Shown here piece by piece: positions 4,601-14,018 of a stretch of 29,401 bases of DNA (its first letter is position 1; each line of letters begins with the position of its first letter). The notes under the pieces were generated by a model. It had not been told where the DNA came from. It did no database searches and saw nothing but the letters and a program-made list of their open reading frames with translations. The stretch is from an uncultured Methanosarcinales archaeon (lineage in GTDB: Archaea; Nanobdellota; Nanobdellia; Woesearchaeales; GW2011-AR9). The stretch is from positions 62,001 to 91,401 of the forward strand of contig CAYFJV010000001.1 in NCBI GenBank assembly GCA_964343575.1, read 5' to 3'. A program made the translations under genes and the position numbers.

Positions 4601-5353
4601 CTAGGCAACGTTGGAGGTGATTCTCTCTAATTTTGCTAACCTTTCTTTTCTTAGGTCGATTCTTCTTTCTGTCATAAATTCTTGGTATCCTTCTAGAGCT
4701 TCTCTGTAGTGAACCCTTCTGACCATCCCTTTCTTTCCTTTTCTCATGCCAAATAAAGAAACTCTTTGTTCAAGCTCTTCTTTTCTTTGATCTCTTCCAA
4801 GTCCGCTAAGATATCTACAAAATATCCTCACTAAATCTGAATCTCTGGTAAGAACCGCAACTCTTTTTCCTTGATAAGCAGCATGGATCCCAGCACCCAC
4901 AATCTCTAAATCTGCTGGACTCTCATTTTCTAGGAAGGGGATTGCACTATCATATCTCCTTAAACATCTTCTAATTCTTCCAAGGGCAGTAACCTGTTGG
5001 GATAAAAGATCAAGACATTCTTCTGCGGTGCGACTCTTTCCTCTTTTTCCATTCAAATAATCTTGGCTTAGAGCAAAGTAAAGAAGCTTTTTTCTCATCT
5101 CTTCTCTTACCTTAGGGGTTGTGTGAGCAGGGAGTCTTCTAAACTGTTCTAACTGCCAAAGGAGTGCTTCAACTTCTCTTTCTACGGGCTTTCTTAAAAC
5201 AGTAAAATCTTGGTTTGTTCTTGCTTTTTTAATCTCTGCTAAGCGATCATTAGAAAGTCCGAGTGCGCAAGTATCAACGAGAAGGAGATCATAACTTTCT
5301 ATTGCTCTGGGAAGTTCTTCGAGTTTTCCTAAATAATCTGGTGACCAAAGCAT
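4601..5353 (-). CDS. PIN-domain-like putative nuclease
   Basis: Acidic PIN signature in order: LLVDTCAL, TPKVREE, SPADLEIV, VLTRDSDL. Confidence 0.7.
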   Translation of the reverse strand: MLWSPDYLGKLEELPRAIESYDLLLVDTCALGLSNDRLAEIKKARTNQDFTVLRKPVEREVEALLWQLEQFRRLPAHTTPKVREEMRKKLLYFALSQDYLNGKRGKSRTAEECLDLLSQQVTALGRIRRCLRRYDSAIPFLENESPADLEIVGAGIHAAYQGKRVAVLTRDSDLVRIFCRYLSGLGRDQRKEELEQRVSLFGMRKGKKGMVRRVHYREALEGYQEFMTERRIDLRKERLAKLERITSNVA

Positions 5354-5417: not shown

Positions 5418-6188
5418 TTAGCATCTTGTTTGTTGATTTCTCTGCCTTCTCTTTCCTCTTCTCCTTCTTGATTTTGCTTCTCTTGCTTTGTAGATACTAA
5501 AAGCTATGCTGAGATCAACCTTTCTTACTTTTTCTGCATCATCTTCTTCCACACGATAAATCTCAAAAAAACTACTCACAAAACCAATTATATCTTCTTG
5601 GCCATTAAGGTACTTGTAGGTGAGAAAAACAATATCATCATCTCTAGTGAGTAAAATTACTTTTTCGTTCTCTTGGGTGTACCTTCCAAGAGCAGCTCCG
5701 ACTAATTTCCTATCTACTCTGTATTTCTCTAAGTGTGAGTTGATCTCAACAATTGGACCCTCATATCTTTCAATTCCTTCTAAAACAGACCTGGCACTTT
5801 CTCTTACTCCTTCTATGGAACCTATCACTCTTTGTAGCCGTGCTCTCTCTTCTCTGCGCATTTCATGCTGTTCTCTTTTCAACTTTCTTCTTAAGAATTC
5901 TTCTCTTCCTGCTAAGAGTCTTGTATACTTTCCTGCTTCTTCCAAAACTTCATTGACAGTTATCGCTCTTCCTCTAAAGAGTTCCCTTTGTCTTTGCAGC
6001 GCTCTTTGCTCAGATCTCATTTTTCCCAAGAGGGTGACATACTCCTCAGTATTTCTTGCTTCTTTGAGATTTCTGCTTAATCCGTTTCTCACCCCAAGAG
6101 CACAATTATCTAAAAAAAAGAATGGGGATCCTTCTAGAACTCCTTCTAGGGCCATTGTAGGTGAAAGGTAACTCTCGCTCCAAACCAT
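5418..6188 (-). CDS. PIN-domain-like putative nuclease (paralog of 4601-5353)
   Basis: FLDNCAL, TVNEVLEE, VDRKLVGAA, LLTRDDDI. Start re-assigned to MVWSESYL, matching MLWSPDYL of the paralog. Confidence 0.7.
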   Translation of the reverse strand: MVWSESYLSPTMALEGVLEGSPFFFLDNCALGVRNGLSRNLKEARNTEEYVTLLGKMRSEQRALQRQRELFRGRAITVNEVLEEAGKYTRLLAGREEFLRRKLKREQHEMRREERARLQRVIGSIEGVRESARSVLEGIERYEGPIVEINSHLEKYRVDRKLVGAALGRYTQENEKVILLTRDDDIVFLTYKYLNGQEDIIGFVSSFFEIYRVEEDDAEKVRKVDLSIAFSIYKAREAKSRRRRGKRRQRNQQTRC

Positions 6189-8242: not shown

Positions 8243-8456
8243 GATGAAGATAAGGAAATTTAGCTTTATAAGCATTTGTGGAATGGAGCAAACAGGAGCT
8301 TTATGGGGTTGTGCTTGGCTGGCTAGGAGCTTATTTTGTTGTGGTTTTTGTCTATTTTTGCTTGCTTTTTGTTGTTTGTGAGCTTTAAAAAGGCTAAATT
8401 TTGTCTGGCAGATTTCCCATTTTTGAGAAGTTTTCACTGAAAAGTGACAAACTGCC

Positions 8457-8473
8457 CAAAAGTTTTATAAATA
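8457..8473 (+). promoter_or_regulatory. archaeal BRE + TATA box
   Basis: CAAAAGTTTTATAAATA upstream of leader copy 2, divergent from mutL. Confidence 0.65.
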
Positions 8474-8493
8474 AATGCTGCTTTTCGCTTCTT

Positions 8494-8658
8494 ATCCCAG
8501 GAAATCTGGGACCGGGTTTAGGAACAACAACCTGGGGAATTTCCCTGAAAATCCTGCAAAGTGAATTGTTTTCCTTTGTTTGATTTTCTGCTTCATTTTT
8601 CCCTAAAAATCCTCAGTGAAGAAGAGAGTATGCTCTTGTTTTGCTGAAGATTTCTGTT
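8494..8658 (+). ncRNA. conserved structured 5'-leader element, copy 2
   Basis: Homologous to the reverse complement of 2444-2603; compensatory change in the first hairpin; begins 30 nt after TTTATAA. Confidence 0.65.
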
Positions 8659-8702
8659 GTTTTCTGAGCCTTTCGTTTAAGATTAAAAGAGGCTACAAAA
8701 AA

Positions 8703-9848
8703 ATGGATAAAAAAACACTTGATGAGCTTGCTATATTAGACGCTGCTAAGTTTGAGCGTTTAGCTTTGAGCTCAAAAGAGGGAAGAAAAGTTGGTGCTAG
8801 TTCTAGGAATGCATTGGTGCGTCATGGTTCAACAGAGAAAGCTCTTATTGAAACTCATGCAGGAGAGAATGGAAGCTTGCAGCATACTTTCTATTTTGCT
8901 AAACTTGGCTTTAAGGTACAAGGTTCAAGAAAAGTGTTTGAACAGTCCTTTACTGGTTCTCTTGTGAAAGGGATACGTTTGGCTAGAGAAGAAGTGAGAA
9001 GGAAAGGATATGATCCTAACGTACTTGATTTTAAAGGAGTTGGGGAGAAGACAGTTTGTGGCGAACAAATAACTAATCCAAGAGAATTCTCTGAAGAAGC
9101 ACGTGCAGTTTTGACTAAACTTCAATCCTTAAGAAGAAAAGAAGGGTTGAGTGGAGTCTATTTGTCTCGAAATCACTTGAGAGGTGAAACTTTCGTAGAG
9201 ATTGCTGTGGCTGATTATGTAACAGAAAATCTTGAAGATCCTCAGAAAGCGGTTGGCCTTGTTGTTTCTCCTTTTCTTCAAGGATATACTGGAGCACTTT
9301 TGGCAGCAGCACAAGAATCTGGACTTCGCTTGCAAGAAGCTTACGCTGGCGCAGGTGGAGTTATTGCTTATGAAAGCCTTCCTGGAAAGTTAGACCTCTT
9401 ACAAGGTCGTGTTGGGGGCCTTACTCAGCTTTTAACCCAGAGAGTTCTTAACCTAGATGATAGATCTATGAAATATTTTCTTCAAGGATCTGAACATAAG
9501 GGATTAGCAGTCTCTCGAAGAGATCTTGCTTTGATAAAGCGTCAATCTAAGAATTACAAATTTAATTATTGTAGAGGTGGTGGCGTGAGGGATAGACTTA
9601 TTCGGCTAAGAGAGAGTCAAGCACGACTCCCTTCCGTTGTGACCCATGTTGTTTTTGATCCAAGTGAGCTTGCTGATGTTTATCAAGCACATCAAGTAAA
9701 AGCCATAGAAGATGAAGCATCAAGGTTCATCTCAGCTGGGCAGTTAGCTCTTGGAGATGAAAGGCATACTTCTTCTGGTGTCCGGGGGTTGGGCAGTTCT
9801 GGTTATGCTAGTCCTCTTCTTACCAAAAGAACTAATGGAGATTATTGA
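8703..9848 (+). CDS. hypothetical soluble protein (~381 aa)
   Basis: Long ORF; start re-assigned to ATG 8703 (MDKKTL, AGAGG upstream) because the upstream extension lies in the leader element. Confidence 0.75.
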   Translation: MDKKTLDELAILDAAKFERLALSSKEGRKVGASSRNALVRHGSTEKALIETHAGENGSLQHTFYFAKLGFKVQGSRKVFEQSFTGSLVKGIRLAREEVRRKGYDPNVLDFKGVGEKTVCGEQITNPREFSEEARAVLTKLQSLRRKEGLSGVYLSRNHLRGETFVEIAVADYVTENLEDPQKAVGLVVSPFLQGYTGALLAAAQESGLRLQEAYAGAGGVIAYESLPGKLDLLQGRVGGLTQLLTQRVLNLDDRSMKYFLQGSEHKGLAVSRRDLALIKRQSKNYKFNYCRGGGVRDRLIRLRESQARLPSVVTHVVFDPSELADVYQAHQVKAIEDEASRFISAGQLALGDERHTSSGVRGLGSSGYASPLLTKRTNGDY

Positions 9849-9850
9849 AA

Positions 9851-10717
9851 ATGAGAAATACTTTAGTAAACATTGTTGGTGCTGCAAGCTTTGCAGTTGG
9901 TGTTGGTGTAGCAAGCCCTGCTTTGGCTGCACAGTGTGATGTGAAGGAAACAACACTTCTTGAACGATTACAATCTGAAGGAAAGTTGAGTGATTGGAGT
10001 AAAGAAGTTATGCAAAAAGAAAAAACTCCTTGTCCAAAGTCTGGTAAAACTGCAGATGGTAGGGACCTCCATTTTCAAGAGTGTGATAACCATGATGGAA
10101 AGGTATACTTTGCAGCTGATTCTAAAAGGTTTGTTTATGGGGATGGGAAAGGGAACTATCTTACAAATGGGGATTATCTTCTTACCAAAGCGGGTTCTGA
10201 TGCTTCCTCTCTTGTTGAAGCTGTTGCTGATGGAAGTAAGATTGATTTAGGAGAAAAGGTTCATGTTTATCATACTGTTTGGGATGCACAAAGAGCACTT
10301 GATATGGATAGAATGAGTGAAGTCTACTCTCCTTTAGAATGTGCTCAAAGAGAGCAAGCAGCTCAAGAACTTGCTAATGGTGAGTATGTTCAGGTTGGTA
10401 ACACGGTTCTTGTTCCAGGTAGAAACCAATACGCTGTTACTCACTTAGATATGGGATACCCAGAAACAGGGTTGTGTATTGAGTTTGAAAAAGGTTACAT
10501 CCTTGAGTTAGACCTTAACAGAGGTGGAAAAGTAACTCAAGTTTATCTCTCCAATCATCCTGGTCAGTCTAGCCATAAGCCAATTGCTGGCAGAAAGCGA
10601 GAAGGTTGTAGTGATGCTGCTCCTCTAACTTTTAGAGAAGCCGTCTCTGATGAATATATGGGTGTTGTAAAAGCAATTATGACTCGAAGCGAGATCATTG
10701 CTCATCCCATTAAGTGA
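9851..10717 (+). CDS. secreted hypothetical protein with signal peptide
   Basis: MRNTLVNIVGAASFAVGVGVASPALA-AQ signal peptide; six Cys; GGAG SD. Confidence 0.75.
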   Translation: MRNTLVNIVGAASFAVGVGVASPALAAQCDVKETTLLERLQSEGKLSDWSKEVMQKEKTPCPKSGKTADGRDLHFQECDNHDGKVYFAADSKRFVYGDGKGNYLTNGDYLLTKAGSDASSLVEAVADGSKIDLGEKVHVYHTVWDAQRALDMDRMSEVYSPLECAQREQAAQELANGEYVQVGNTVLVPGRNQYAVTHLDMGYPETGLCIEFEKGYILELDLNRGGKVTQVYLSNHPGQSSHKPIAGRKREGCSDAAPLTFREAVSDEYMGVVKAIMTRSEIIAHPIK

Positions 10718-10735
10718 GTTGATTGGTGAGTAAGA

Positions 10736-11473
10736 ATGGAGAAAGAAATTTTGTTAGGATTAGCAGATTTAAGCAGAGATTGTTTTTTTGATTTAGGATC
10801 AATGCCTCTTGTCTTTGAAGCAAGGCTTGGGTTTGTTTATGAGACACAACCTTCTTCTTTGGAGGCTTTGGGCGTTTTTTATTCTCAGGGAGACCTCTCT
10901 CAAAAGTTACATGGCCCCCTTCGTGGAAGATCGCTTCAAGGAGATACTGTAGAAGAGAGAGACCTGGGTAGGTGGAATGTTTACGAGTTCTCTGCTTTGG
11001 ATCTCAAACTGGGAGAGAGTGCTCGGTCTGATGTTCAAGTTCAGCCTTATCTTGCAACTAAACAGATTTCTGTAAATCGTGGCCCAACCCTGTCCTCTTT
11101 AGAACTTGTAAACGGTGTTTACTCTCCCCAAGATTCAGTAGAAATATCTTCTGCTGAGGTGGTGCGTTCTTTGGTTTCTCAAGCTCCTGATTTTATTAGA
11201 TATGTTGAAACTAAAGAAGAACCCTTACTTGCTTATGTGGGGGTGACTTTGCGTCATATCTCCCCAGATTCTAATGGGGCTTATGTTTCTTTACTCACTA
11301 GCGCCCGGGCTCATGATCTTCATCGGATTTTTGGTCTTTCCTCTCAAACTCTTGAAGAGAAATCTCCCCCTCTCGTTGCTAGATCTTTTCGAGGAAGTGT
11401 GGATGATTCTAGAAGCAGATTTTCTTACCTTTCAGCTATCTCTTTTGATTCTAAGAAGCTTTTAAGAAGGTAA
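10736..11473 (+). CDS. hypothetical protein (245 aa)
   Basis: SD GGTGAG before ATG; followed by T-tracts; no motif recognised. Confidence 0.7.
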   Translation: MEKEILLGLADLSRDCFFDLGSMPLVFEARLGFVYETQPSSLEALGVFYSQGDLSQKLHGPLRGRSLQGDTVEERDLGRWNVYEFSALDLKLGESARSDVQVQPYLATKQISVNRGPTLSSLELVNGVYSPQDSVEISSAEVVRSLVSQAPDFIRYVETKEEPLLAYVGVTLRHISPDSNGAYVSLLTSARAHDLHRIFGLSSQTLEEKSPPLVARSFRGSVDDSRSRFSYLSAISFDSKKLLRR

Positions 11474-11618
11474 TATTTTTAGATTTTTTTACTTGTTTCT
11501 CTCTTTTTCTTTTTTCCTTTGACTTGTCCAACAGCAAGCTATATAAATGCTAAAATTTTCTTTCACTCTTGTGTTTTGGAGTTGCTTAGGTCTTGTGGAT
11601 CTCTTTTAGGCTTCTTCT

Positions 11619-14018
11619 ATGGTGAGAGATGTGGTAAAGAAAAAAAAAGCGAAGGCTGGAGCAAGGAGTTCTTCTTCAAATTATCACCCAAGCCAACATA
11701 CCCAAAGTTCGCTTGATGCAACCTTACAATTGTTGATTCCGCCGCTTTTGATTGCACTTCTTGCGCTTACTATTTACGAGCTTTTTTTCCCAGTAAATTT
11801 CATTTTCCATGTTTTTATTGATGCATTTGATATCTTTGTCATCTTAGTTTTTGCAACTGATCTTTACTTTCGTTGGAAGGCACATACTGGCTCTGTTTTT
11901 GCTTATATCACTAAGTATTGGTTGGACATACTTGCAACCATCCCATTCAATCTTTTCTTTGCAGGGATACAAACACTTCCTTTGCTTAGAGGACTTCGAC
12001 TTGTTCGCATCATTGGTCGAGCAGGAAGGTATGTTCGTCTTGTTCGGTTCTTTGCAAGAGCCCCAAGGTTTATTCGTTTGACTGGTAAGGTTCCTCCTGC
12101 TCAAACTGGTATTCGTAAGGTGCAACCTCACGAGAAGAAATTGAAGAAAACGCTGAGCTTCAAAACTATCTTACTTATTACTATAAACTCTATTATGGGA
12201 ACTGGTATTTGGTTCTTAACTGCTGCAGGAGCAAAGCATGCTGGTCCAGCATCACTTGTTTCCTGGGCAATTCTTTCTCTTATTTCGCTTTATATCTCTA
12301 TGTGTTTTGCAGAGTTAGTAAGTATGTACCCAAAAGCTGGCGGAGTATATGAGTTTGCAAAACAGGCTTATGGTCGTTTTCCTTCTTTTGTGATTGGATG
12401 GACTACTGCCATTGCAGGAGCAGTAACCATTGCTATGCTTTTGCTTGGGGCGCTTCAGTATTTAATCCCCATTGAGTATGCTTTTACTTACATTCCAATT
12501 GCGGTTGCGCTTATCGTTATCTTTAGTTATGTTGCTTATCGTGGAATGCAAACCTCTACTGTAATGCTGGTTACTTTTGCACTTATCACTTTATTTGCAG
12601 TGCTTGCGATCATTCTTCCTGGTTTGATTAAGTTTAACCCTCAGAATTTGGATCCTTTCTTTGTTTTCCCAACGATGAGTATCTTGCTTACCATCTTTTT
12701 TATCGCAGAGACTTTCTTTGGTTGGGAGAGTGCAGTATTCTTATCTGCTGAAACAAAAAACCCAACTAAGGTTATGCCAAAGGCGCTTATTTACGGAACA
12801 CTTGTTATTGCCTTGCTTTCCTTTTTGCTTGCTTTCACCGCAATTGGAACCATTCCTTGGGAGCAGTATGCAGAATCTGTAGCTCCACTTCGTGATCTTG
12901 GAGAAGCTCACTTTGGGGCCTTGGGAGGTGTCTTTTTTGCAATCCTTATTTTTGTCTCTGTGATAGGAGCTACTGCAGGTTGGGTGGTAACTGCTCCTCG
13001 CTTGTTTATGGCATTGGCTGAGGATAAACTGTTCTTTACACAGTTTGCAAAGATTCATCCTAAAAATAAGAGTCCTTATGTTTCAATATTGTTTCAGGTT
13101 CTTGTGGTTTCTGTTCTCGTGGTGATCGGGGCTGGATCTTATGAAGTCCTACTTCATATGTTGATTCCACTTGTAATCTTGATTTATTCTTCAGTCTTGC
13201 TTGCGGTAATTATTTTACGTTATAAGCGACCGAATGTGAAGAGGGCTTTTAAAGTGCCTTTTGGAAAAATTGGTCCTTTCTTTACCGTATTGTTCATGGT
13301 CTTTTTGCTAGTGATGTTTATTAAAGAGACGCATAGCGCGCTTGATATCTTACGTGTCTCCATCGGGCTTGTACTCTTTGGACTTCCTGCTTACTTTTTT
13401 ATTGAGCTCTTTTACGAGCAAAAGTATGCAAAGTTACGTCAGGAAATTTGGGCTCGTCTGCTTCATTATTTTCCTTTCTTGCACCCAATAGTTCCTTACA
13501 GACGTATTATTGGTATGGTGGGACCCCTTCGTGCTAAGACGAAAATCATGTCAGTGAGCTTTCCTTCAGATATCTTTAGCCATTATCTGCTTCGTCGTGC
13601 TTATGCCTTTGGAAGTATCTTAAGCTTACATCAATCTCAGTATGAACTTCAAGGAATTAAGAAGAAAATTTCATCCCACTCATCAAGAAAGAAGGTTACT
13701 TTGAAGAGAGTAAAATCTTTGTCTGTACTCCCGGGAGCAAACACTAAGAACAACTTCAATGTAATTGTTTCTTATAATGATCTTGGATATACTAAGAACC
13801 TTCCTAAGTTCTTCAAGAGCGTATCTTCTAATTTGACTCGTGGTGGAAAGTTTTGTTTGTATGTGCGCCATAGCTTTTTTGATATGAAACCTAACGCAAT
13901 TGAGCTTGATAAGACCAAAGAGCTCTTGAAGATGGCTAAAGAAAGTGGTTTGCAAGCAAAATATTTGAAGCTGAATCGGGTAGGGTATACTGAGATCTTT
14001 ATTTATGGGAAGAAGTAG
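11619..14018 (+). CDS. APC-family amino-acid permease fused to an N-terminal voltage-sensor-like (S1-S4) domain and a C-terminal degenerate class I methyltransferase-like domain
   Basis: VSD: VFATDLYFR (S2), YWLDILATIP (S3), LRGLRLVRIIGRAGRYVRLVRFFARAPRFIR (S4). APC: LKKTL, NSIMGTGIW, GPASLVSW, YPKAGGVYEF, FFGWES, ETKNPTKVMPKA, RPNVKRAFKVP. MTase-like: FNVIVSYNDL..NLPKFFKSVSSNLTRGGKFCL. Confidence 0.88.
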   Translation: MVRDVVKKKKAKAGARSSSSNYHPSQHTQSSLDATLQLLIPPLLIALLALTIYELFFPVNFIFHVFIDAFDIFVILVFATDLYFRWKAHTGSVFAYITKYWLDILATIPFNLFFAGIQTLPLLRGLRLVRIIGRAGRYVRLVRFFARAPRFIRLTGKVPPAQTGIRKVQPHEKKLKKTLSFKTILLITINSIMGTGIWFLTAAGAKHAGPASLVSWAILSLISLYISMCFAELVSMYPKAGGVYEFAKQAYGRFPSFVIGWTTAIAGAVTIAMLLLGALQYLIPIEYAFTYIPIAVALIVIFSYVAYRGMQTSTVMLVTFALITLFAVLAIILPGLIKFNPQNLDPFFVFPTMSILLTIFFIAETFFGWESAVFLSAETKNPTKVMPKALIYGTLVIALLSFLLAFTAIGTIPWEQYAESVAPLRDLGEAHFGALGGVFFAILIFVSVIGATAGWVVTAPRLFMALAEDKLFFTQFAKIHPKNKSPYVSILFQVLVVSVLVVIGAGSYEVLLHMLIPLVILIYSSVLLAVIILRYKRPNVKRAFKVPFGKIGPFFTVLFMVFLLVMFIKETHSALDILRVSIGLVLFGLPAYFFIELFYEQKYAKLRQEIWARLLHYFPFLHPIVPYRRIIGMVGPLRAKTKIMSVSFPSDIFSHYLLRRAYAFGSILSLHQSQYELQGIKKKISSHSSRKKVTLKRVKSLSVLPGANTKNNFNVIVSYNDLGYTKNLPKFFKSVSSNLTRGGKFCLYVRHSFFDMKPNAIELDKTKELLKMAKESGLQAKYLKLNRVGYTEIFIYGKK

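Follow-up and report, generated by a model that had tools for sequence, protein, structure and literature searches.

A duplicated promoter with a predicted structured leader at the head of two putative orphan operons in an archaeal genome

Two leader-headed cassettes and their setting

The window analysed is a stretch of 29,401 nt from the genome of an uncultured archaeon (GenBank assembly GCA_964343575.1, contig CAYFJV010000001.1, positions 62,001 to 91,401). It contains two non-coding sequences, copies A and B, that are 81-86% identical, lie 5.9 kb apart and are inverted relative to each other. Each has the same position and orientation with respect to a promoter on its upstream side and a protein-coding gene on its downstream side, and the parts of the two cassettes are collected in Table 1. 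An earlier note on this DNA, made from the letters alone, had described two non-coding copies of about 85% identity, and these are present where it placed them. In a BLAST search of the 1.21-Mb genome the copies align with 82% identity over 165 nt (E 8.8e-39), and their alignment of 167 columns comprises 135 identical and 32 differing columns.

Table 1. Window positions of the two promoter-leader copies, their predicted RNA elements and the associated genes. SD, Shine-Dalgarno sequence.
Feature	Copy B (plus strand)	Copy A (minus strand)	Remarks
Cassette	8243-11490	71-2705	promoter, leader and three (B) or four (A) orphan genes; A is flanked by a conserved gene (start 70) and the pepF stop (2706)
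Promoter	8458-8471	2626-2639	in B an A-rich BRE-like stretch and TATA, 13/14 positions as in A; TTTATAA at 8464-8470 (B) and 2633-2627 (A)
Leader	8494-8671	2603-2434	from A8494 or A2603 (predicted starts) up to and including the long-range helix (clamp)
H1	8495-8511	2602-2586	predicted 5′-end hairpin
Invariant 18-mer GGTTTAGGAACAACAACC	8515-8532	2582-2565	can form H2 or provide the clamp with its 5′ strand (B 8514-8529)
H3	8534-8539 with 8598-8603	2563-2558 with 2500-2495	
H4	8547-8588	2550-2509	
H5	8604-8656	2494-2446	
Internal direct repeat	TTTCCCTGAAAATCCT 8540-8555; TTTCCCTAAAAATCCT 8598-8613	2485-2498; 2542-2555	in B opens H4 and H5, respectively; spacing 57 in A
Clamp core, invariant GGUUUAGG	8515-8522 with 8663-8670	2582-2575 with 2441-2434	
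Clamp 3′ strand	8655-8659 and 8661-8671		
Expression platform	8667-8705		anti-SD 8667-8673 can pair with 8688-8694
SD	GAGG 8689-8692	GGAG 2423-2420	
First start codon	8703-8705 (B1)	2411-2409 (A1)	
First gene	B1 8703-9848	A1 1581-2411	orphans
Second gene	B2 9851-10717	A2 1083-1568	orphans
Third gene	B3 10736-11473	A3 751-1080	orphans
Fourth gene		A4 131-670	orphan
End of operon B	11476-11480 (T5); 11484-11490 (T7)		T-tracts
Amino-acid permease unit	11540-14018		plus strand; own TATA TATATAAA at 11540-11547

None of the cassette genes A1-A4 and B1-B3 belongs to a Pfam or NCBIfam family, and in PHROGs they give marginal matches only (E about 0.005). A1 and B1 have no match in 113 genomes of the family and B3 has none in 5 relatives; for B1, the candidates scored out of 5.8 billion proteins include no relative, and the downstream genes have no usable match in the Atlas. 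The genes that follow the two copies had been called unrelated, which is borne out by BLASTP for A1 and B1 (E 2.6). Beyond the promoter and leader the two cassettes have no DNA in common. There are no terminal repeats at their ends, and they yielded no match to a transposase or integrase family.

In a genome of the same genus (G001, with orthologous proteins 65-71% identical to those here) the genes that flank cassette A are 47 nt apart, and mutL and uppS, between which cassette B lies, are 54 nt apart. In a second genome of the genus (G002) the left gene is 74 nt from pepF, and between mutL and uppS there is a 294-aa orphan gene distinct from those of cassette B, with a short upstream region (L069:2625-3735), so that this site is variable within the genus. 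The absence of both leader-headed stretches from the same junctions in G001 is a new observation. From these comparisons the stretches 71-2705 and 8243-11490 are lineage-specific at conserved junctions, either by insertion here or by loss in the others, the comparison being one of three genomes and unrooted. A foreign origin was considered on the basis of composition and rejected, since GC is 0.35-0.44 throughout with no step.

This placement could mean that the shared 165-200 bp serve as a site of recombination or form one end of a mobile element, i.e. the edge of inserted DNA that is recognized at the level of DNA. It is true that each copy lies at the inner edge of a stretch that same-genus genomes lack at the corresponding junction, that the copies are mutually inverted, and that one of the two sites is variable. 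However, the cassettes lack any other common sequence, terminal inverted repeats at their far ends and a transposase or integrase family, the copy number is two, and the G-U-type changes described below favour an RNA made from one strand. We consider such an origin highly improbable. With two copies and no terminal inverted repeats at the cassette ends, the element is not classed as a MITE or the end of an insertion sequence. Further copies scattered at random with respect to genes had been named as the mark of a MITE; since there are no further copies, that mark does not appear.

The permease gene that follows cassette B is a conserved gene outside the leader-driven operon. G001 and G002 have orthologues of 63-64% identity, located elsewhere on other contigs. 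Its product (11619-14018) has an N-terminal extension of ~170 residues, with the Pfam transporter match running from residue 179; orthologues in three relatives, again on other contigs, are 59-64% identical and align from residue 28 on. The mutL/uppS junction of this genome (8243-14041) holds cassette B together with the relocated permease. Between pepF and mutL there are tandem genes on the minus strand (4601-5353 and 5418-6188) with N-termini that are alike by eye. Neither can be placed firmly in a family, the only Pfam line being a sub-threshold TPR match for the first (17.4 bits, cut-off 27.9), and at this site G001 has one gene, which is 28% identical to the second. To the left of the window, stretches of ~2.0 kb (C1:54724-56776) and ~1.4 kb (C1:58729-60103) between conserved genes are missing from G001, whose corresponding gaps measure ~360 and ~440 nt. 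Lineage-specific stretches look common in this genome.

Promoters, divergence and predicted fold of the leader

The TTTATAA sequence that precedes both copies also occurs elsewhere in this genome, 34 nt upstream of where mature tRNA-Asn and tRNA-Arg begin. Among 951 long ORFs, TTTAWA peaks at -35 to -26 from the first ATG, with 196 occurrences in two 5-nt bins compared with ~15 per bin elsewhere. Judged by this placement, TTTATAA is the TATA box of the organism. The homology between the copies had been said to start 30 nt past the first T of TTTATAA, and this is exact in both (8464 to 8494, and 2633 to 2603). From the distance to the TATA box we infer that transcription starts at these positions, ~30 nt downstream of the promoter.

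SD-like 4-mers peak at -15 to -6 in the same set of ORFs, the two signals occurring together in only 13 of them. Since TATA and SD signals are rarely combined, promoter-proximal genes look mostly leaderless while an SD appears typical of operon-internal genes, and an SD-led gene after a leader of ~200-210 nt is therefore unusual here. The GGAG and GAGG sequences before A1 and B1 are spaced from the ATG like those of other SD-led genes in this genome. The GATCACCTCC motif, which we take to be the 3′ end of 16S rRNA, has a single occurrence in the genome. Leaderless transcripts are reported to make up 72% of the protein-coding transcripts of Haloferax volcanii (PMC4983044). An inverted repeat, TCACT-GAAA-AGTGA, is located at 8434-8447, ~17 nt upstream of the copy B TATA box. 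It is without a counterpart in copy A, and may be due to chance.

The divergence of the two copies is uneven along their length. The BRE/TATA segment is identical at 13/14 positions and the body (the 5′ 123 columns) at 106/123, while within H5 the 3′ arm is identical at 15/15 positions and the apical loop at 13/26. The spacer between TATA box and element had been described as not conserved, which overstates the case, as 11/22 positions are identical; downstream of the element the figure is 23/56 columns. For segments defined post hoc, with the data already seen, this heterogeneity gives a chi-square of 33.8 (p 8e-7). The strong homology ends 44 nt (8658, ATG at 8703) and 32 nt (2444, ATG at 2411) before the start codons, within the 30-45 nt first estimated. 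Past these ends ~12 nt more can be aligned (to 8670 and 2434), where the differences are transitions only. That identity is 86-100% in the stems and TATA box, but ~50% in the spacer and in the H5 apical loop, suggests a constraint on the fold of the sense-strand RNA.

Six-frame translation of both copies revealed no ORF with a conserved start codon on either strand. A small protein was rejected as an explanation, the sole frame that is open in both copies having no common ATG, GTG or TTG after the predicted start. There is no tRNA within the window. A search of the whole window against Rfam 15 gave 0 matches at the gathering threshold, the best sub-threshold match being to c4-a1b1 (19.2 bits compared with a cut-off of 46.7, E 0.013), in keeping with the first impression that no known riboswitch could be recognized.

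In the predicted fold H1 would be located at the extreme 5′ end, and would be followed by a domain in which H4 lies inside H3 and H5 comes next. An internal direct repeat (TTTCCCTRAAAATCCT, spacing 57-58) is present in both copies, so that H4 and H5 can be regarded as two similar modules. The H4/H5 domain would be closed by a long-range helix, the clamp, in which the invariant GGUUUAGG would pair with the bases that directly follow H5. The stems GGUU/AACC, GAAAAUC/GAUUUUC and AAAUC..CAGY/GCUG..GAUUU that had been proposed by eye are also predicted by RNAalifold. The covariation proposed for hairpin 1 is found as a single compensatory pair (G-C or A-U, depending on the copy); this is the covariation available from two sequences, and statistical assessment needs more than two.

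Compared with shuffled sequences, copy B has fold z-scores of -3.9 (167 nt) and -3.5 (247 nt, flank included), and copy A has -2.2 (162 nt) and -2.7 (229 nt, flank included). When the flank is included, the same clamp is present in the minimum free energy (MFE) structure of each copy, predicted independently. The 3′ strands of the clamp differ at 4/8 positions between A and B, with all pairs retained. The clamp duplex has an energy of -18.8 kcal/mol in copy B, compared with -8.2 +/- 2.4 for shuffles (2/2000 as good), and -11.2 kcal/mol in copy A, compared with -6.8 +/- 2.3 (94/2000 as good).

When the MFE structure of copy A is imposed on copy B, 1/46 pairs is broken, compared with 8.4 +/- 2.1 for random substitutions (0/5000 as good). 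The reverse operation, with a copy B structure that includes pairs specific to that copy, breaks 12/56 pairs compared with 13.4 expected (1770/5000 as good). In a 46-pair model, which was picked with both sequences in view, 92/92 cells pair; 36 pairs are invariant, nine are changed on one side, all by G-U-type substitutions, and one is compensatory. All 11 substitutions at paired positions retain pairing, and controls in which the model is slid along the sequence are 36-59% paired. On the opposite strand, each of the nine G-U-type changes would produce an A-C mismatch, and this favours an RNA with the sense-strand sequence over a DNA palindrome. The shuffle control of the 46-pair model (255/500) is uninformative with two sequences. 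A simulation of structure conservation was not significant, with 44/400 randomly mutated copies reaching the RNAalifold energy of -33.25, and the antisense consensus energy of -40.8 is better than that of the sense strand.

These data bear on the possibility that we are looking at a passive relic of promoter capture, a fragment of ~200 bp that was copied or gene-converted, in which the TATA box would be the only part with a role, the leader RNA itself having none. The presence of two copies only, in one genome, would be expected of a relic, as would the outcome of the simulation and the breaking of the B-derived fold in copy A; patchy gene conversion could also yield the blocks of identity. 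Yet the pattern of divergence is that expected of a promoter and a folded RNA, the A-derived fold is retained in copy B, pairing survives all of the substitutions at paired positions, and the 3′ flank has changed at half of its clamp positions while remaining complementary in both copies. We regard a functionless leader as a real but doubtful possibility, and favour a promoter that is coupled to a structured leader.

A putative switch at the Shine-Dalgarno sequence

The untranslated leaders would be ~210 nt (B) and ~200 nt (A) in length, with the first ~178 and 170 nt, respectively, common to both. Each would run into an SD-led orphan operon, B1-B3 or A1-A4, presumably as one transcript. It had been proposed that CRGG can pair alternatively with CCUG, hinting at a switch; this pairing is possible in copy B but in copy A it needs an A-C mismatch. 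Another alternative fits both copies in the models. The clamp and H2 (GGUU/AACC, formed on the invariant 18-mer) would be mutually exclusive, and the 3′ strand of the clamp could also mask the SD, so that a translational switch is plausible. With the clamp open, this pyrimidine-rich strand would be free to pair with the SD region.

In partition-function folds, forcing H2, a perturbation of our own choice, cuts the accessibility of the SD from 0.83 to 0.01 in copy B and from 0.54 to 0.02 in copy A. The ensemble cost of the forced H2 is 3.5 kcal/mol (B) and 2.2 kcal/mol (A). The difference in accessibility was matched by 0/150 shuffles of the 3′ flank in each copy, a test that in part restates the existence of the clamp. 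In the H2 state the SD was equally masked in 8/150 (B) and 17/150 (A) of the shuffles, in which the SD is mostly paired anyway. Masking of the SD on its own is not exceptional.

On these models the most likely mode of action would be control of translation in cis by anti-anti-SD, anti-SD and SD segments, and both orphan operons would come under one signal, for which a protein, a small RNA, a ligand or temperature may be considered. Translational riboswitches and RNA thermometers have such an arrangement. As in those systems, three segments of the leader would be mutually exclusive, with the accessibility of the SD set by the helix that is formed. Unlike them, the leader has neither a conserved aptamer family nor Rfam membership, and is found in one genome only. 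Stem-loops at the 5′ end of an RNA can have a stabilizing role, and H1 may protect the 5′ end here.

The leaders could instead be two paralogous small RNA genes, or could give rise to small RNAs by early termination or processing, acting in trans in either case. Each copy has its own promoter and a compact fold with a 5′ hairpin, and T-runs occur within or behind the element (in copy B, a T5 run at 8596-8600 and a T4 run at 8660-8663). These runs are, however, short and unconserved, with T4 and T3 at the equivalent places in copy A, whereas the tracts after B3 are much stronger (T5 and T7). Moreover, an SD and start codon are found 22-32 nt downstream, with no second TATA box between the element and the gene. 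Elsewhere in the genome there are weak matches only, the best of 17-34 nt with E of at least 0.09, in BLAST (E<=10) and covariance model searches that were aimed at copies rather than at targets in trans. We think small RNAs acting in trans distinctly unlikely, and prefer a leader that acts in cis on the operon it precedes.

Distribution and relation to known systems

We searched for further examples using BLAST and a covariance model of the element, with which the true copies score 192-205 bits. In its own genome the model recovers both copies, along with the hairpins on their antisense strands, and nothing else, while BLAST (E<=10) finds the two copies and otherwise 17 short matches of 14-34 nt with E of at least 0.09. 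BLAST in 60 relatives gave two matches of 29-39 nt in the T-rich part (E 1.3e-4 and 5.4e-4), which were discarded when the model gave no confirmation. In the 113 family genomes the model gave 9 weak matches (E 0.0125-0.99, at most 22.7 bits); six full-length alignments were inspected, and all are without the conserved blocks. In 150 genomes of the order there were two weak matches (E 0.0029 and 0.042), the better of which lies inside a 60-codon ORF, on the opposite strand. The two same-genus genomes, 89% and 77% complete, have no homologue. RNAs with an important function tend to be distributed more broadly than this.

Pattern scans of large collections, which may omit records of the window's own genome and which needed exact matches of 18-21 nt and could thus miss diverged copies, returned 12 metagenome and 10 genome loci, and 0/22 of these match the model at E<=1. 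Viral scans with five patterns gave 1, 1, 0, 4 and 4 loci. For the last two patterns 4/8 loci match the model, over the 19-20-nt seed region only; of the single-locus patterns, one gave no match to the model and the other returned the contig range of an unmatched metagenome locus. BLAST against phages and plasmids gave no match. In the full texts available to our literature search we found no paper on RNA-based gene control in DPANN archaea that bears on the element.

The proposal of a new class of archaeal cis-regulatory RNA is not supported, given two copies in one genome and no homologue in 113 family and 150 order genomes. This is a new sequence family, of a kind already known. The promoter and leader module is real and genome-specific, and it is probably functional. 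We interpret it as a lineage-specific, reused promoter with a structured 5′ leader, of the kind called a putative mobile promoter (PMP), that may control translation in cis; our confidence in this reading, drawn from sequence comparison and folding models, is evenly balanced. The shared control by promoter and leader was probably copied from one site to the other.

PMPs were described by Matus-Garcia, Nijveen and van Passel (NAR 2012) as sequences of at least 50 nt with at least 80% identity upstream of non-paralogous genes in one genome. The summary in PMC3575422 gives >4000 families in 1362 genomes, mostly pairs, and states that some carry RNA regulatory motifs, riboswitches included. The present case is likewise a pair of similar non-coding upstream sequences. 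The copies are 86.2% identical over 123 nt (8494-8616 and 2603-2482), a match that overlaps the -150 to -50 windows used by those authors, and their neighbours are non-paralogous, as seen in the comparison of A1 with B1 and in the lack of any other common DNA. Unlike the PMPs described, we have an archaeal TATA promoter with a leader of ~178 nt that would be transcribed, and an identity of 81-86% compared with the 92% average of PMP pairs (PMC3575422). A further difference is that both copies head orphan stretches that are absent from the sister genomes. We note that the abundance of similar upstream pairs before unrelated genes, >4000 families in 1362 genomes, also fits the relic of promoter capture discussed above.

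In archaea, a parallel for the leader can be found in Methanolobus psychrophilus, where long 5′ UTRs with predicted stem-loops that mask the ribosome-binding site are reported (PMC5378194). In both cases an archaeal leader of >150 nt is predicted to mask the ribosome-binding site, and control of translation or stability is proposed. The leaders described for M. psychrophilus are gene-specific and were mapped experimentally (PMC5378194), whereas that found here is a duplicated family, predicted from sequence. A second difference is that the promoter-proximal genes of the present genome appear to be mostly leaderless.

We also considered a metabolite-binding riboswitch of a new class. The invariant 18-nt segment, the alternative pairings tied to SD masking in both copies and the absence of an Rfam match would be compatible with this. 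On the other hand, a riboswitch class should have an aptamer that is found in several lineages and supported by covariation, and here both copies come from a single genome. Phylogenetic spread is lacking, the genes controlled would be orphans without a metabolic link, and the structure consists of repeated simple hairpin modules and not of a compact multi-stem junction. A riboswitch is thus very unlikely. The suggestion in the earlier note of a riboswitch, protein-binding leader or small RNA therefore holds in that there is a promoter with a structured leader before two orphan operons, but not as regards the riboswitch.

DPANN genomes are rich in orphan genes that lie between conserved ones. 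A more far-reaching reading, which we consider unlikely, is that a portable unit of promoter and sensor RNA switch, gating the access of ribosomes, is copied before orphan cassettes, newly arisen or acquired, in such fast-evolving genomes, which would thereby come at once under a common signal. If true, this would be a new archaeal riboregulator family, with a sensor that responds to protein, RNA or ligand, and a means by which orphan genes become regulated. Should the putative reused promoter and leader described here be a working switch, orphan genes would gain regulation through the copying of a ready-made promoter with its leader, and the RNA is a concrete and mutable one for which the clamp and the SD-masking helix give clear predictions. 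If it is merely a captured promoter, it is a further case of a common phenomenon.

Several other repeats were observed in this genome. A non-coding family of ~130 nt with at least 7 copies has complementary ends (GGCGCTTGCC ... GGCAAGCGCGCC) and a conserved core. Its copies are at C1:421619-421762 (L063:220-363), C2:331701-331833 (L067:202-334), C2:367705-367841, C2:97083-97212, C2:434635-434768, C1:126750-126870 and C1:419079-419177. Rfam gives nothing for it at E<=0.01, and one copy is ~25 nt from a tRNA-His gene (ARAGORN; L067 358-429, minus strand). The family could be a MITE or a structured RNA. A second family of ~160 nt has 4 copies, at C1:196560-196716 (L064:221-377), C1:548227-548387, C1:618026-618189 and C2:223875-224035. 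By eye its core is like that of the ~130-nt family (CTGTCCGCC ... GAAAATGGCTCCCAGGAAGATCAC) and its complementary ends are different (GTCCTAAGAG ... CTCTTAGGAC); for two of the four copies there is overlap with long ORFs, and Rfam gives no match for the family. The third repeat, which is non-coding and likewise unmatched in Rfam, is 120-150 nt long and has 3 copies, two of which are 96% identical, at C1:22693-22813 (L065:224-344), C2:144075-144195 (minus) and C1:503225-503373 (minus).

ARAGORN found 14 tRNA genes only in this genome, which is rated 95% complete; the remaining tRNAs are probably of forms that ARAGORN misses, or are unassembled. Finally, a gene for a protein of 73-74 aa with a very basic C-terminal tail is duplicated (C1:414828-415049 and C1:416321-416545; L066:229-450 and L066:1722-1946). 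The DNA of the two copies is ~89% identical over ~300 nt, and they flank a gene of 348 aa.
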